Below the pieces are notes generated by a model. That model was given only the letters and a program-made list of their open reading frames with translations. It made no database searches and was not told the origin of the DNA. Source: Escherichia coli (GTDB lineage Bacteria > Pseudomonadota > Gammaproteobacteria > Enterobacterales > Enterobacteriaceae). From it: a stretch of 64,000 bases of DNA. The stretch is from NCBI RefSeq assembly GCF_013122565.1, contig NZ_CP053258.1; one strand, written 5' to 3'. The position numbers and the translations under genes were made by a program. Shown here in pieces: positions 19,176 to 43,311 of this stretch (within the stretch, counting starts at the first letter, position 1; each line of letters starts with the position of its first letter).

Positions 19176-19392
19176 GGGCAGAAAGATGAATGACTGTCCA
19201 CGACGCTATACCCAAAAGAAAGCGGCTTATCGGTCAGTTTCACCTGATGTAAGTAAAAACCCGCTTCGGCGGGTTTTTGCTTTTGGAGGGGCAGAAAGAT
19301 GAATGACTGTCCACGACACTATACCCAAAAGAAAGCGGCTTATCGGTCAGTTTCACCTGATGTACGTAATAAACCGTTCCGGCGGGTTTCAG
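19176..19392 (+). repeat. Two tandem ~113-bp direct repeats duplicating the rnpB 3' end and terminator
   Basis: GGCAGAAAGATGAATGACTGTCCACGAC...GGTCAGTTTCACCTGATGTA.GTAA.AACCCG.TTCGGCGGGTTT occurs twice after the genuine rnpB 3' end. Confidence 0.8.
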
Positions 19393-19413
19393 ATTGTTGA
19401 GTGCGCTTTATTC

Positions 19414-19513
19414 ATGCCGGATGCGGCGTGAACGCCTTATCCTGACTACAAAAGCACGCAAATTCAATATATTGCAGAGATGGCGTAGGCCTGATAAGCG
19501 TAGCGCATCAGGC
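19414..19513. repeat. REP/BIME element
   Basis: GCCGGATGCGGCGTGAACGCCTTATCC and AGGCCTGATAAGCGTAGCGCATCAGGC palindromic units. Confidence 0.75.
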
Positions 19514-19628
19514 ATTTTTGCGGTTGCCATCAGTTTCAAACCCGCATCGATAAGTTTTTGCTTTTGGTGCACAGGGTAAGATGAATATCTACGGTATTAA
19601 TAATAGACTTTGTAAGAAGTTATTAAGT

Positions 19629-33908: not shown

Positions 33909-34172
<264 letters not shown>

Positions 34173-36469: not shown

Positions 36470-36597
36470 TTTTGCCTCAATTTTGCTCAATCACTTGTTT
36501 TTAAAGCAGCAAATTAAGAATAGACGTGAATGAAATGGCAGTAAATATTCGCTCAATGAATTAATAAGGTGCTGTGAAGGATAAGGGCAAGCGCAAA

Positions 36598-36700
36598 ATT
36601 GCCAGAAGCGCTACGTTTATCTGGTCTGCGCGGTCATGGCAACATATTGAATATAAATGTTTTGTAGGTTGGAGAAGGCGTTCACGCCGCATCCGACATT
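36598..36700. repeat. REP/BIME element
   Basis: AGGCGTTCACGCCGCATCCGACA plus a degenerate REP at 36601-36628. Confidence 0.65.
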
Positions 36701-36726
36701 AATAACACGCACTTAGCTAATAATCA

Positions 36727-36753
36727 GAGGCACCTCGTAAGGTGCCTTTTTTT
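36727..36753 (+). terminator. Hairpin with T7 tract at the 3' end of yqjG (convergent/bidirectional terminator)
   Basis: GAGGCACCTCGTAAGGTGCCTTTTTTT; the T-tract overlaps the yqjG stop. Confidence 0.5.
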
Positions 36754-37738: not shown

Positions 37739-37809
37739 TTTTCTCTCCTCCAATAGCAAAAACGAGGAGCGTTTCTCCTCGTTTTAAAATTGCTGGCAAA
37801 CGAAAAACT

Positions 37810-37908
37810 GCCTGATGCGCTATGCTTTTCAGGCCTACGAGGTTTCTGCAATATATTGAATTTGCATGCTTTTGTAGGCCGGATAAGGCGTTCACGCCGC
37901 ATCCGGCA
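37810..37908. repeat. REP/BIME element
   Basis: GCCTGATGCGCTATGCTTTTCAGGC and GGCCGGATAAGGCGTTCACGCCGCATCCGGC. Confidence 0.75.
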
Positions 37909-37985
37909 TGAACAACGCGCACTTTGTCAACAATCTGAAACGAGGAGCTTCCTCCTCGTTTTTTATCGTTAAGTATAGCGCGTGC

Positions 37986-38378
37986 TTACCACTTTTTATT
38001 CAGCAGGCGGTCGATGCTATACGCGCCCGGACCGGTAATTGCCAGCAGCAGGAATCCGCCAGAAATTGTCAGGTTTTTCATGAACATCAGCGAGTTGACG
38101 CCTTCAGCAAAGTTGCTGTGAAATAAAAATGCCGTCAGCAGCGTAAAGCCCGCAGTAAACAGGGCTGTGGTGCGAGTCAGGAAACCGAACAGGACTGCCA
38201 GACCACCACCGAACTCAAGCAGAATCACCAGCGGCAGCATAAAACCCGGGACGCCCATCGCTTCCATATATTGTTGGGTACCCGCGTAGCCAGTAATTTT
38301 TCCCCAGCCTGCGGTAATAAACAGAATCGGCATTAAAATGCGCGCTACCAGTACACCAACATCTTCTAATTTTTTCAT
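37986..38378 (-). CDS. yqjF: DoxX-family inner membrane protein YqjF (130 aa)
   Basis: ORF 37986-38468 with likely start MKKLEDVGVLVARILMPILF. Confidence 0.8.
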   Translation of the reverse strand: MKKLEDVGVLVARILMPILFITAGWGKITGYAGTQQYMEAMGVPGFMLPLVILLEFGGGLAVLFGFLTRTTALFTAGFTLLTAFLFHSNFAEGVNSLMFMKNLTISGGFLLLAITGPGAYSIDRLLNKKW

Positions 38379-38564
38379 CATACTCTCCACTGCGCCACTC
38401 AGGCTGCTGATTGTTTTTTTGTGCAAGGGCGCGGTATTAGCGTCGTTGCTGTCGATGGAGAGAATCATAAACGTGGTGAATGATGATTGTTAGCAAGGAA
38501 AACTGTCAAAAATCTTCAAAAAATTTGAGGTATAAGGCCGGAATGGCTCCGGCCAGAAAGGAAG

Positions 38565-38864
38565 TTAACCGCGAAGCTGTTGCTGCTTGAGGGTCGTTTT
38601 CACCAGACGCCAGGCGCTCCATACGCCAAAACCGCGTCTGGCCCAGCGGACCAGCATATTAGGATGGCGAATCGTCCAGATCGCCATCACACTACTGCCA
38701 ACCAGCGCCCAGGAGCGCAGACTTAGCAGCATATTCCAGCGACGATCGTAAGCGCCTGTTGCCTCCAGCCATTCACGACGACTGGCAGAAAGATCCAGCC
38801 GTTGTTGCTGGATCTGGCTAAGCAGTTGCGCCTTACGTCGTTCACGTTCGACTTTACTGCTCAC
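38565..38864 (-). CDS. yqjK: Small protein YqjK (99 aa, probable GTG start)
   Basis: SSKVERERRKAQLLSQIQQQRLDLSASRREWLEA...; overlaps the yqjE 3' end. Confidence 0.65.
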   Translation of the reverse strand: MSSKVERERRKAQLLSQIQQQRLDLSASRREWLEATGAYDRRWNMLLSLRSWALVGSSVMAIWTIRHPNMLVRWARRGFGVWSAWRLVKTTLKQQQLRG

Positions 38865-39258
38865 GGGACTCCTCCTCGAGCAGCTGCCGATCGTTTGCCA
38901 GCTCATGGCGTGTATGGCGCAGCAAGGTGGATTTACGCGATTTACGTAGCGTCCAGATACCGCCAATCAGTGCCAGTAGCAGCAACACCACGGTGGTGGC
39001 AATCATCGCATTCAGGCGATATTGCGGATCAACCGCCCAAATAATTAGCACCATCAGGCTCATAAGACCAAATGCAGCGAAAAGCATCGTCAGGCCCAGC
39101 ATCAGTAAAAGTTGAAAGAGATTAGCTTTTTCCTCTTCCAGCTCCACCACCGCCAGCCGCAGACGTGTTTCCACCATTTCAACCATGATGGAAACAATTC
39201 GCTGCCCGATGCCCAGAACGCTTTTACCGGGCCCTTGCGCGTGATGAGTGTCCGCCAT
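38854..39258 (-). CDS. yqjE: Inner membrane protein YqjE (134 aa)
   Basis: MADTHHAQGPGKSVLGIGQRIVSIMVEMVETRL..., two transmembrane helices. Confidence 0.8.
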   Translation of the reverse strand: MADTHHAQGPGKSVLGIGQRIVSIMVEMVETRLRLAVVELEEEKANLFQLLLMLGLTMLFAAFGLMSLMVLIIWAVDPQYRLNAMIATTVVLLLLALIGGIWTLRKSRKSTLLRHTRHELANDRQLLEEESREQ

Positions 39259-39260
39259 AA

Positions 39261-39566
39261 TTAACGACGCGACAGCAGAACGCCGAGCACTACACCGATT
39301 GCAGCGCCAATGCCCACGCCCGTCCATGGATTTTCACGCACATACTCATCGGCACGCGCCGCCGCGACACGGGTTTGTTTGGCGATGGCATCACCGGTTT
39401 CACCCAGGCGATAACGGCTCTGTTTCAGTGCCTGCTCCGCTTTGCTACGAATCTTACTCAACTCTTCTTTCGACTTCTCGCCAGATGAGCTAAGCACCTC
39501 TTCCAGCGTATCGGAAAGGGATTTCAACTCAGCACGCAGATGTTCCGTAGTGTGTTCTTTCGACAT
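39261..39566 (-). CDS. yqjD: Ribosome-associated membrane protein YqjD (101 aa)
   Basis: MSKEHTTEHLRAELKSLSDTLEEVL... with a C-terminal transmembrane helix (DUF883). Confidence 0.85.
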   Translation of the reverse strand: MSKEHTTEHLRAELKSLSDTLEEVLSSSGEKSKEELSKIRSKAEQALKQSRYRLGETGDAIAKQTRVAAARADEYVRENPWTGVGIGAAIGVVLGVLLSRR

Positions 39567-39603
39567 AGTTTTCTCCAAGTGAGTAAGTAGTGACTATTGT
39601 GAG

Positions 39604-39972
39604 TTAGTAGTCGCGCGCTTCCAGCTTTTTCAGCTCTTCCTGCGCTTCTGCCAGTTTCCGTTCGCGTTTGGCAATCTTATCGGCATCGCCTTTTTGCTTC
39701 GCCTCGGCTAAATCTTGCTGGCGTTCCGCCACCTCATCTTTCTGCTTTGCGATTTTCTTCTGATGATCGGCACGCAGCTGGCTATCTGAACAGTTGGCCC
39801 GGACTTCACTCAGGGCTTTATTCAGACCGTCAATACGATTCTGGTTTTGGTGTTTTTCGGCATAGCTGATTTCCTTAAGGATATTTTGCTCCTTTTCCTG
39901 ACACAGGGTAGTGGCATAACTACCGGCACTAAGAGCAAAAAGAGAAACAGCTAAAGCGATGCGGTATTTCAT
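39604..39972 (-). CDS. yqjC: Periplasmic protein YqjC (122 aa)
   Basis: MKYRIALAVSLFALSAGSYA signal peptide followed by a charged coiled-coil region. Confidence 0.8.
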   Translation of the reverse strand: MKYRIALAVSLFALSAGSYATTLCQEKEQNILKEISYAEKHQNQNRIDGLNKALSEVRANCSDSQLRADHQKKIAKQKDEVAERQQDLAEAKQKGDADKIAKRERKLAEAQEELKKLEARDY

Positions 39973-40118
39973 TCTTGAACCTTCCATTGTGATTCGGACC
40001 TATTACAAAGGAACGATTGTCCAGACAACGAAGCGGTAGTGTTAACCACCGCCTCATTAATCATAGACAGTTACGGTGAAATCACCAAAGTGAGTGATCT
40101 GTTTCGGATAACAGGAAG

Positions 40119-40502
40119 TTATCCGAAGCGATGAGAGTTATCCCGTAGCCGGGTCAGCCACTGCATAGCCTGACTGTTATTGTCCTGCTGCGCAATGATG
40201 TAGCCTTGGGGCAATGTTCTGTCGAGGACCGCTTTTGCAGCGGCGCTCTGGTCGCTGGAGTCAAAGGTAATTAACAGAGTGTCGTTTTTGGGGGTGATAC
40301 TTTTGAAAGGAATGCCATGAGCGTCAAGGTGATGCCAGATTGAAAAACCGTCTGGCATCGTTGTGCCTTGATGAACGGCACGAATCGCCAGCGTAGACTC
40401 TTGCTGGCGAACCGCGGACCAGGCTAGCAACAGCGTGCCGACCAGAAGTAAAACAGCGCCGGACCAGGCTAGCTGGCGAAGCGACATGCGAGGTATTTGC
40501 AT
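40119..40502 (-). CDS. mzrA: Modulator of EnvZ/OmpR, MzrA (127 aa)
   Basis: [34 protein letters not shown]... single transmembrane helix plus periplasmic domain. Confidence 0.82.
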
Positions 40503-40505
40503 CCC

Positions 40506-41168
40506 TTACCCCCGATTTCCATATTTCTTTTTCCATAACACGACCAGAGAACCTGCCAGGCCAAACACCAGCAGCACCACCGGGAGCAGCATCAGGCATG
40601 ACATCAGCTGGTCCTCGTACTTTAAAAATACCGGCGTTTTGCCGAGCATGTAACCCAGAGTTGTCAGGATCAATACCCACAGCAGACCGCTCATCCAGTT
40701 GAAGAACTGAAAGCGCGCGTTATTCAGCCCTGATAACCCGGCAATCGTCGGCAGCAGTGTTCTGACAAACGCAATAAAGCGACCAATTAACAGCGCCGAT
40801 AAACCGTGTTTATGAAAAAGATGGTGTGCGCGTTGATGATAATGCGCGGGTAAATGAGATAGCCAGTTTTGTACGGTGCGGGTATTGCCCAGCCATCGCC
40901 CCTGAATATAGCTGACCCAGCAACCGAGGCTGGCGGCAACGGTCAGCAGCAGAATCGTTTGCGGGTAACCCATCGCGCCTTTCGCAATCAATACGCCGAC
41001 CAATACCAGTAAACTGTCGCCCGGTAAAAAGGCCGCCGGAAGCAAGCCGTTTTCAAGGAACAAAATTACAAACAAGACAAAATACAACATGCCAATCATC
41101 GATGGATTGGCCAGGGTTTCAAAATCCTGCGCCCACAGGGCTTGCAGCAATTGGGTCAAAAGTTCCAT
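40506..41168 (-). CDS. yqjA: DedA-family inner membrane protein YqjA (220 aa)
   Basis: 220-aa ORF with the DedA/SNARE-associated motif [17 protein letters not shown]. Confidence 0.88.
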
Positions 41169-41512
41169 TCATTATTCCTGGTGAATCGGTTAACGCCACG
41201 CTGGTTTTAAAAGATGCACTACCGCAATGTTATTGCTGTTTTGGTATGTTCTGCGGGTTTGATACATCAACACAGCCTGAACTATTCCCTGTTAAATCGT
41301 GAGATAAGAAAGCATTCAAAAGCATAAATTCAAATTGAATCTAATTGTAACAAAGGTCAACGTTGTTCGTTATCAAAATTACATGTCCGTGGAGTCTGAT
41401 TTTGCTGAATGCAGGGGAGGGTGGCGAGAGGATTTACACAGGCTGACACTTTATACTTTTCGCTTACCGACGAGACAAACAGGCGCATTGCAGCGCCTGT
41501 CGGACAGGAATT

Positions 41513-42289
41513 TCATTTACTGCCGCTGGTGGCTGTATCGAGATGCACCACCGGGTTTTCGGCGAATAGATAGCGGTCGGCATTGAACTCGAAGTCGTCG
41601 CTGGTTTCGTTAAATAACATGATCTTGGTGTTTTCCAGGTGCTGCCACATTGCCAGCTTAGCAGCATGAGGATCTTTGCGAATCAGCGCCTTGAGGATTT
41701 GATCGTGGTCATCACACCAGTTATCGACGGTACGGGAATCAATGTGTTCATGCAGTTTTTTCCAGTACGGGTTATGACTACGCTGGGTCCACATTTTTTC
41801 AACGATGGCCGCCAGGGCGGAGTTCTGCGTTGCCAGAGCTACCTGAATGTGGAACTGCAAATCCCACTCGGAATCACGGAAACATTGTTCGCCGCGCGCC
41901 TGCTCCTGAATGGCCATCAGTTTCATGATGTCCTGTTTCGTCACCTGAGTTGCCGCGAACTCGGCAATATTACTTTCGATAAGCTGGCGAGCCTGGAGCA
42001 ACTCAAACGGACCGTAATTGGCGAATTCCATATTATTGTCCGCCGCCTGCTGATGGCGCGGCTGGTTGGAAACTACATGAATACCTGAACCTTTACGCAC
42101 CTCCACATAGCCTTCAACTTCCAGCATGATGATGGCTTCACGAACTACTGTACGGCTGACATTCTTTTCATCGGCAATAAAGCGTTCGGCAGGTAGTTTA
42201 TCACCCACCAGATAGACGCCCTGTTCGATGCGCTCTTTCAGGTCAGCGGCAAGTTGTTGATACAAACGGCGTGGTTCAGTGATTTCCAT
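41513..42289 (-). CDS. exuR: GntR/FadR-family hexuronate regulon repressor (258 aa)
   Basis: 258-aa ORF with N-terminal GntR helix-turn-helix and FadR-type C-terminal domain. Confidence 0.88.
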
Positions 42290-42583
42290 ATGCGTCTCCC
42301 GGAGTGGAATGCGGTCGAAGTTATCATACCACTTTATTTATGGGTATGCCATGGGGGGGGTTATTACTGGTATTTATATAAAGTTAATACATATATGTAA
42401 TTTGTATCTTTATAAATTCCTAATTTTTAGCACCTTCCATTGATGGATTTCATATTTTTCAGTAGGTTAAGAGCTGTTCTGTTAAATATAATTTATATCA
42501 TCAATAGATTATTGTTTTGACATTTGCCCCCTCAATCAATTTAATGCACGCATTCGGTAACTTTCGTAAAAGAAAATATCATT

Positions 42584-43285
42584 GTGAAATGCATAAAAGT
42601 TCCATTTATCCTGGCGTGTATTCTTTTTTTCTGGTCAATACCAGGACAAGCAAATATGACGGTCTATCCTATGGCGGTTTCAATTAACAGCCAGGGGGAA
42701 GGAAGTGTTCGCGTAATATCTAAAAGCAATGAAGTTCAATATATAAAAGCGACAGTATTTCGTATTGACAATCCTTCAACACCTCAAGAGCAGGAAGTTG
42801 AAATAAAATCCGGAGATGCTACTCATCTGGTAGTGATGCCGCCTAAGTTCGCGCTGCCAGCGGGTAGCAGTAAGACTGTGCGCTTTGTTGCAATGGAACC
42901 GGAGCAAAAAGAAAAAAATTATCGCGTTAAATTTGAAGCGGTTCCCAGTATTGATGATGTTGCCACGGATAAAAAAGATCTCTCTATGCAGTTAACAGTT
43001 AATTTAATTTGGGGCATCGTTGTTAGCGTCCCCCCACAGGATCCTGTTATTGCTTTAAAAACGAATTCCCGCGGTGAGTTACTTAACGATGGGAATCAGC
43101 GAGTAAAAATTCTTACTGTTGATTACTGTAATTCCGCTTCCTGTAAAACACAGACGGTAAACAAAAATCTCTTTCCAGGACAAGTAAGAACGTTAGACGG
43201 CATATCTGGCTACAATAAAATTGTGGTCAAATATAATAACTGGATCACTAAAGACAACGGTGAAGTTGAACTAGTAATTCATTAA
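42584..43285 (+). CDS. Class 5 (CFA/I-CS1 type) fimbrial periplasmic chaperone, CfaA/CooB-like (233 aa, GTG start)
   Basis: Signal peptide MKCIKVPFILACILFFWSIPGQA; mature region (TVYPMAVSIN...SVRVISKSNEVQYIKATVF...LPAGSSKTVRF...YRVKFEAV) aligns with recalled CfaA motifs. Confidence 0.75.
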   Translation: MKCIKVPFILACILFFWSIPGQANMTVYPMAVSINSQGEGSVRVISKSNEVQYIKATVFRIDNPSTPQEQEVEIKSGDATHLVVMPPKFALPAGSSKTVRFVAMEPEQKEKNYRVKFEAVPSIDDVATDKKDLSMQLTVNLIWGIVVSVPPQDPVIALKTNSRGELLNDGNQRVKILTVDYCNSASCKTQTVNKNLFPGQVRTLDGISGYNKIVVKYNNWITKDNGEVELVIH

Positions 43286-43311
43286 TGTGTTTTTTAAATA
43301 AAGGAATAGTA

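Follow-up and report, generated by a model that had tools for sequence, protein, structure and literature searches.

An eight-G tract between exuR and a CS1-like fimbrial operon of Escherichia coli is probably an incidental, lineage-specific homopolymer

In Haemophilus influenzae (the TA repeat of hifA/hifB) and in Neisseria (the poly-G/poly-C tracts of porA/opc), a simple repeat forms the spacer between the −35 and −10 elements, and its length sets promoter strength. These tracts are conserved across strains and hypervariable, and their host species have weak or no slippage-loop repair. In E. coli with proficient mismatch repair, slippage at an 8-mer should be far slower than at such classical contingency loci. 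To our knowledge, control by a promoter tract is not established for E. coli regulators. In Bordetella pertussis, homopolymer variation at fimX (C7/C8) has been described as microevolution rather than rapid switching (PMC1891110).

Here we describe a run of eight G in the window (the 64-kb stretch of E. coli chromosome that was analyzed). The run resembles fimX and the poly-C tracts of fim2/fim3 in being a short G/C run in a fimbria-associated promoter region with a one-base strain difference, and it shares with hifA/hifB and porA/opc the occurrence of a simple repeat in a divergent or fimbrial promoter region. The spacer position and tract conservation of hifA/hifB and porA/opc are not found for it, and in contrast to their hypervariability, its length differs by a single base among the three lineages compared. 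The Bordetella tracts lie inside the promoter, with a measured change in transcript, and those of fim2/fim3 are 10 to 18 nt long and widely variable, whereas the run described here is G7 or G8, lies outside the predicted core promoters, and adjoins a repressor gene instead of a fimbrial promoter. The fimbrial locus between exuR and exuT is known as eafABCD in E. coli W (PMC3032704) and has also been named “CS1-like” fimbriae (PMC6033998). The window operon has the site, four-gene order, and Pfam families of eafABCD (PMC3032704; PMC6033998) but is a rare, divergent allele with its closest sisters in Escherichia sp. E4742, and the G run is peculiar to it. The reading that we favor is that G8 is probably incidental, a recent homopolymer of one lineage that borders the fimbrial island, shows an ordinary one-base polymorphism, and has no switching role.

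The G8 tract and the exuR promoter block

Eight consecutive G occupy window positions 42353 to 42360 on the plus strand (GGGGGGGG, read directly from the sequence), in the context GGGTATGCCAT-G8-TTATTACTGG; on the exuR-sense strand the tract is C8. It is part of the 294-bp divergent region that separates exuR from the fimbrial operon, with its start 64 nt upstream of the exuR ATG and its end 224 nt from the GTG start of the chaperone gene (42584), and the DNA from 42361 to 42583 has a G+C content of 25.6%. These values agree with the initial annotation, which had placed a G8 tract at 42353 to 42360, about 65 nt upstream of exuR and about 225 nt upstream of the chaperone gene, at the edge of an AT-rich stretch in the divergent control region. 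The tract is the sole G or C run of at least 8 nt in the window. In mononucleotide shuffles, runs of this kind average 1.4 per 64 kb (P = 0.78 for at least one) and a first-order Markov estimate gives 0.9; a contingency tract should be longer than composition predicts, and with one run observed against 0.9 to 1.4 expected, this tract is not.

The exuR gene (41513 to 42289, minus strand) encodes the hexuronate repressor of the GntR/FCD family, a protein of 258 amino acids with domains PF00392 and PF07729, and its open reading frame is 97 to 99% identical at the nucleotide level to genes annotated as exuR in E. coli. Its leader and promoter block (42290 to 42352, minus strand) was delimited by promoter scans and by conservation: all island-bearing genomes are near-identical from the exuR ATG to ...GGGTATGCCAT and diverge from 42353 onward. 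The tract sits at this breakpoint (42352/42353), at the exact end of the block common to island-bearing E. coli and the start of the allele-specific, AT-rich fimbrial control region. Two scans predicted the exuR −35 element as either ATGGCA (42347 to 42352, with an 18-nt spacer) or TGGCAT (42346 to 42351, with a 17-nt spacer), together with an extended −10 element, TGn-TATGAT (42323 to 42331); a Shine-Dalgarno sequence, GGGAGA, is found at about 42295 to 42300. No mapped exuR transcription start was found, and all promoter positions given here are predicted ones. In K-12, the binding of RNA polymerase to the exuT-exuR spacer has led to the prediction of another promoter for exuR (PMC3946193).

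An operator-like box, TCATACCACTTTA, at 42324 to 42336 overlaps the predicted −10 element. By empirical word comparison, two further copies of the box were located in the window (at about 49311 and 49414), both in the exuT-uxaC region, which ExuR controls, and the box is retained in island-free strains too; it is probably the ExuR operator. The sequence AWWTGGTATACCAWWT, which we take to be the ExuR/UxuR operator consensus, was also tried with up to three mismatches and was dropped, as its matches were at chance level and none lay near exuR or exuT-uxaC.

The G run is immediately upstream of the predicted exuR −35 element, as C8 at about −36 to −43 on the exuR-sense strand. A contingency tract would be expected in a −35/−10 spacer or in the gap between an activator site and the core promoter, and no good promoter candidate straddles the run; if the real exuR −35 element were upstream of the run, the run would fall in the spacer. 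A quantitative effect on exuR is plausible, because the run adjoins the predicted −35, where contacts between the RNA polymerase alpha-CTD and UP elements form. In such a slipped-strand “rheostat,” the gain or loss of one base would rotate, by about 34 degrees against the core promoter, the AT-rich DNA upstream, which might be UP-element-like or bind a nucleoid protein or an activator; a heritable, reversible level of exuR, and hence of the hexuronate regulon, would thereby be set. Besides the position next to the −35, the real G7/G8 polymorphism between close relatives and a cluster of to-G changes that hints at a non-neutral origin (both described below) speak for this idea, and there is a precedent in the Bordetella fimX promoter, where C7 and C8 are associated with a 3.8-fold difference in transcript (PMC1891110). 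Although it is the leading alternative to an incidental run, we regard the rheostat as unlikely. No other allele has the run, even though the adjoining exuR promoter block is conserved, and the top promoter scores in the exuR sense, like those in the fimbrial sense, were the same with G7, G8, and G9. Moreover, ExuR is reported to repress its own gene (PMC9369180), and such autorepression should buffer a modest change in promoter strength. The variability of the tract, considered further below, also speaks against the rheostat.

The fimbrial island and its control region

Between exuR and exuT lies a four-gene chaperone-usher operon of the CS1/Tcf type (alpha class), which has the gene order of that class (chaperone, major subunit, usher, tip protein) at 42584 to 47689. 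All four genes are on the plus strand: a periplasmic chaperone equivalent to eafA (42584 to 43285, 233 amino acids from the GTG, PF00345), a CS1-type major fimbrial subunit (43312 to 43812, 166 amino acids, PF04449), a TcfC/CooC-type usher (43914 to 46598, 894 amino acids, PF17271 and PF16967, with PF15976 below the cutoff), and a tip adhesin or pilus initiator of the CfaE/CblD family (46595 to 47689, 364 amino acids, PF07434). A hairpin at 47728 to 47754, between the convergent adhesin gene and exuT, is likely a bidirectional terminator, and the hexuronate transporter gene exuT (47776 to 49074, minus strand, PF07690) forms the far boundary of the island. The same layout between exuR and exuT is seen in annotated E. 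coli genomes and in E. coli W (PMC3032704). For the chaperone, an internal ATG is chosen as the start by gene callers, which yields 209 amino acids and loses the signal peptide; the GTG at 42584, about 30 nt past the predicted promoter, gives the N terminus MKCIKVPFILACILFFWSIPGQA, a plausible signal sequence.

The flanking regions, yqjE-exuR and exuT-uxaC, are 98 to 99% identical to those of E. coli genomes. In a sample of 40 genomes, evenly spaced among 5,422 matching complete genomes, the island-type block upstream of exuR was present in 14, and exuT lay directly beside exuR in the other 26. In island-free E. coli (L004/L005, positions 3103 to 3168), 66 nt cannot be aligned with the island version (window 42303 to 47730) except for a shared operator-like ATACCACTTT box, so the island type arose by replacement of sequence rather than by clean insertion or the reverse, and each type has its own exuR 5′ leader.

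At the nucleotide level, the window's fimbrial allele is about 87% identical to that of RMDEC465 and, in the genes, about 79% identical to the allele that is common in E. coli. The eaf/CS1-like locus as a whole is hyper-allelic, with 79 to 88% nucleotide identity between alleles inside flanking core genes that are 98 to 99% identical, and chaperone and control-region alleles have been reshuffled (a 96%-identical chaperone is joined to a different upstream allele in L007 to L010). The alleles closest to the window island (42290 to 47730) are those of the unclassified Escherichia sp. E4742 (L018), E4702, and E13S3, which suggests that the locus has been exchanged between E. coli and other Escherichia lineages.

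The AT-rich, allele-variable fimbrial control region (42361 to 42583) was delimited from an alignment of nine alleles. These alleles are colinear and share short conserved islands, TTTATAAATTCCTAA (42409 to 42423) and TTTCAGTAGGTT (42457 to 42468). The predicted fimbrial promoter, TTGACA-17-TTTAAT (42517 to 42545, plus strand), had the top score in the scan (13.8 bits), and a −35 of TTGAC and a −10 of TNTAAT recur, equally spaced, in alleles with an identity of only about 55% elsewhere. In the colinear control regions of L001 to L003, L007, L011, L015, and L018, only short motifs are retained, namely, TTTATAAATTCCTAA, TTTCAGTARGTT, and TTGAC-17-TNTAAT. A short C5 run at 42527 to 42531, unlike G8, does fall within a spacer, the 17 nt between the predicted fimbrial −35 and −10 elements; at this point the sister alleles read CCCTC or CCCGCC.

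Other types of fimbrial switch were also considered. No GATC occurs between 41705 and 42976, so a Pap-like Dam/Lrp switch was rejected. A fim-like invertible element was likewise rejected, because the only inverted repeats in the control region are 10 nt long, 90% matched, and AT rich and because the four-gene island has no recombinase gene. The window as a whole has 279 GATC sites, compared with 234 ± 14 in dinucleotide-preserving shuffles, yet there are none across the exuR-fimbrial control region.

This lack of any other recognizable switch (no GATC from 41705 to 42976 and no long inverted repeats) leaves room for the idea that the G run controls a phase-variable fimbrial operon at a distance, through the helical phasing of upstream sites for H-NS or another regulator against the promoter. 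Phase variation is common among fimbrial operons, and the promoter tracts of Bordetella fim2/fim3 are precedents (PMC1891110). The evidence against it is that 157 bp separate the end of the run from the −35 of the conserved TTGACA-17-TTTAAT promoter downstream, that the conserved motifs (42409 to 42423, 42457 to 42468, and the −35/−10 pair) are all downstream of the run, so that their mutual spacing is unaffected by its length, and that no other allele of the operon has the run. We judge control of the fimbrial operon by the tract to be highly improbable.

The position of the run, exactly at the junction of the exuR promoter block and DNA of 25.6% G+C, together with the direction of the clustered changes (all toward G), would also fit selection of the G/C block for its composition, as a boundary that keeps the exuR promoter free from the spread of H-NS-type silencing out of the AT-rich island DNA; on this view, G7 versus G8 would be neutral noise. 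About one-third of the sampled E. coli genomes, however, carry the island with AT-rich sequence at this point and without a G block, so such a boundary is not generally needed. H-NS binding here is putative, and 8 bp is short for an insulator. Selection for composition is thus a very unlikely account of the tract.

Distribution and length of the tract among alleles and relatives

The run is confined to one rare allele, found in four assemblies, two of which are probably from the same strain. G8 is present in the window and in the Logan assembly of SRA run SRR11451224 (L023). Within identical flanks, G7 is found at this position in GCA_018578885.1 (99.39% identity over 22.7 kb) and in GCA_052983875.1 (99.55% identity over 22.7 kb). 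Escherichia sp. E4742 and SRR6148341, also with identical flanks, have GGTAGTT, as does RMDEC465, and the metagenome allele ERZ15610156 has GGTGGTT; the other alleles have TTGCTGA, TTGTTGA, or TTGGTCA within unrelated AT-rich sequence. A contingency tract should be kept as a tract across strains and alleles, and this one occurs in the window lineage only. Among 5,426 complete E. coli genomes, a related control-region allele was found in one, RMDEC465 (86.7% identity across the control region). The exact proteins of the window allele are on record for three genomes only, in addition to the Logan contig; exact look-ups of the window adhesin (P0117), the 230-amino-acid chaperone call (P0085), and P0014 returned no record. 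The right flank peculiar to the allele, TTATTACTGGTATTTATATAAAG, a query that would catch any tract-length variant of it, gave no match in a metagenome scan.

In the nine colinear alleles, the extra G of the window is the sole length change in the first ∼250 alignment columns, so G7 is the ancestral length. G7 differs from GGTAGTT and GGTGGTT by three or four substitutions within five adjacent positions, every one of them to G, and the ∼60 nt of flank around the run has three positions that differ from the sister allele. Such clustering is far from random, and selection for a G run could also yield it.

One-base homopolymer miscalls are the commonest assembly error, and both draft relatives have G7, which raises the question of whether G8 is such an error and the true sequence G7. 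The assembly of SRR11451224, which is based on reads and is 100.000% identical to the window over positions 37898 to 54675 (16,778 bp), also has G8, and G8 is therefore very unlikely to be an assembly artifact. The SRA run very probably comes from the same strain as the window, and it may share reads with the finished genome, so the two are not fully independent. In the 22.7 kb that was compared, 11 of the 12 other runs of at least 7 nt match the relatives, and no coding frameshift was seen. None of the complete E. coli genomes was close enough for a wider check of indel errors in the window. On this evidence a sequencing error was largely rejected and has very little chance of being the explanation.

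The site of the G run is mutable. Over 22.7 kb, 92 and 135 substitutions separate the window from the two G7 genomes, and there are indels at five intergenic sites: the G run, the A8 run at 55953 (where both relatives have A7), T4/T3 at 47711, CC/C at 47737 in the terminator stem, and a 7-nt duplication. It is GCA_052983875.1 that has the duplication, of ACGTTAA at 47766, and that has T3 where the window has T4; both changes form part of a small cluster of intergenic indels at 47700 to 47790; the adhesin-exuT hairpin of the window lacks one C and has a stem of 10 bp, compared with 11 bp in the relatives. Among the three lineages, 2 of the 13 runs of at least 7 nt in the compared stretch are polymorphic, the G run and the A8 run at 55953, which is likewise one base longer in the window than in the same two relatives. 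The third run of at least 8 nt, A8 at 49163, is A7 in another E. coli strain. The two G7 genomes are 48 substitutions apart in 13 kb and have both retained G7. With A8 runs varying in the same way and both relatives keeping G7, the G run appears, over these three lineages, to behave like other 8-nt runs.

If one change is set against a total tree of ∼0.007 substitutions per site, the tract would change at roughly 100 to 200 times the per-site substitution rate, a rough estimate that comes from a single event and ignores recombination. With an E. coli base substitution rate of ∼2 × 10^−10 per site per generation, this would correspond, again roughly, to 10^−8 to 10^−7 changes per generation, which is lower by orders of magnitude than the rates of classical phase variation. 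In E. coli, the rate of indels climbs exponentially as runs lengthen (PMC8510543), so that a single +1 change at an 8-mer is expected at this divergence. These observations bear on the exuR rheostat as well: G7 has been kept by two lineages that are 48 substitutions apart in 13 kb, the variability of the run is not above that of the neighboring A8 run, and the slippage of an 8-mer, in line with the published trend (PMC8510543), should be far slower than that of contingency loci. The initial annotation had called the tract a hotspot for slipped-strand mispairing and had proposed a comparison of its length among isolates, with an invariant length speaking against a switch. The length does vary, the window having G8 and its two nearest relatives G7 within identical flanks, but over three lineages only (G8, G7, and G7), and of the hotspot there remains a one-base difference with a variability no greater than that of ordinary A8 runs.

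Two of the A runs lie in control regions of their own. The A8 at 55953 to 55960 is T8 on the alx-sense strand, where it forms the U-tract after a GC-rich hairpin (about 55961 to 55995), a short way ahead of the Shine-Dalgarno sequence and start codon (ATG) of alx; hairpin and U-tract look like a terminator or attenuator in the alx leader, and an Rfam search of 55700 to 56500 gave no family at the gathering score. The A8 at 49163 to 49170 lies in the divergent exuT-uxaC control region; E. coli NT1N31 has A7 there, and the close relatives of the window have A8. Elsewhere, positions 1 to 25000 of the window are mosaic: 3 of 5,426 complete E. coli genomes cover at least 80% of this part (∼94% identity, best coverage 96%), and most genomes cover 69% of it at 98.7% identity. 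The extra DNA includes a chbC-like phosphotransferase system component and a 6-phospho-beta-glucosidase near garD/garP. Dispersed repeats of ∼80 to 160 nt with 77 to 88% cross-identity (19386 to 19541, 34089 to 34170, 36586 to 36728, and 37782 to 37961) are probably intergenic repeats of the REP/BIME type.

Probable origin and significance of the tract

The phase-variable expression of either transcription unit that was envisaged in the initial annotation is not borne out: the run lies outside the predicted promoter spacers, is absent from the other alleles, and shows an ordinary polymorphism. The incidental, lineage-specific origin that we favor would have two steps. In the lineage of the rare allele, an ancestral GGTAGTT or GGTGGTT would have become G7 through three or four clustered changes, all to G, which may represent stepwise extension of the run by transient misalignment, as in dislocation mutagenesis. 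In one strain, G7 would then have become G8 through replication slippage. Because the run is upstream of the exuR −35 element and far upstream of the fimbrial promoter, this one-base change would leave both core promoters intact and would at most alter by 1 bp the distance between the exuR core promoter and the AT-rich DNA upstream, and ExuR autorepression (PMC9369180) would tend to damp any such effect.

The same facts can be read as a contingency locus at its birth, in which a run built by to-G changes beside the exuR −35 is now slipping between G7 and G8. We consider this distinctly unlikely. If it were true, the run would provide a heritable and reversible tuning of ExuR and possibly of the adjacent, H-NS-prone fimbrial island. 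Were the run a switch, slipped-strand control of a promoter, rare in E. coli, would link sugar-acid regulation with a cryptic adhesin island.

For genome scans, the locus provides a filter for intergenic G/C 8-mers in E. coli, which should be flagged only if the tract is conserved across alleles, lies inside a promoter spacer or coding frame, and varies more than neighboring A/T runs. The more interesting biology is that of the operon around the tract, a hyper-allelic CS1-like operon whose control region is conserved in short motifs only.
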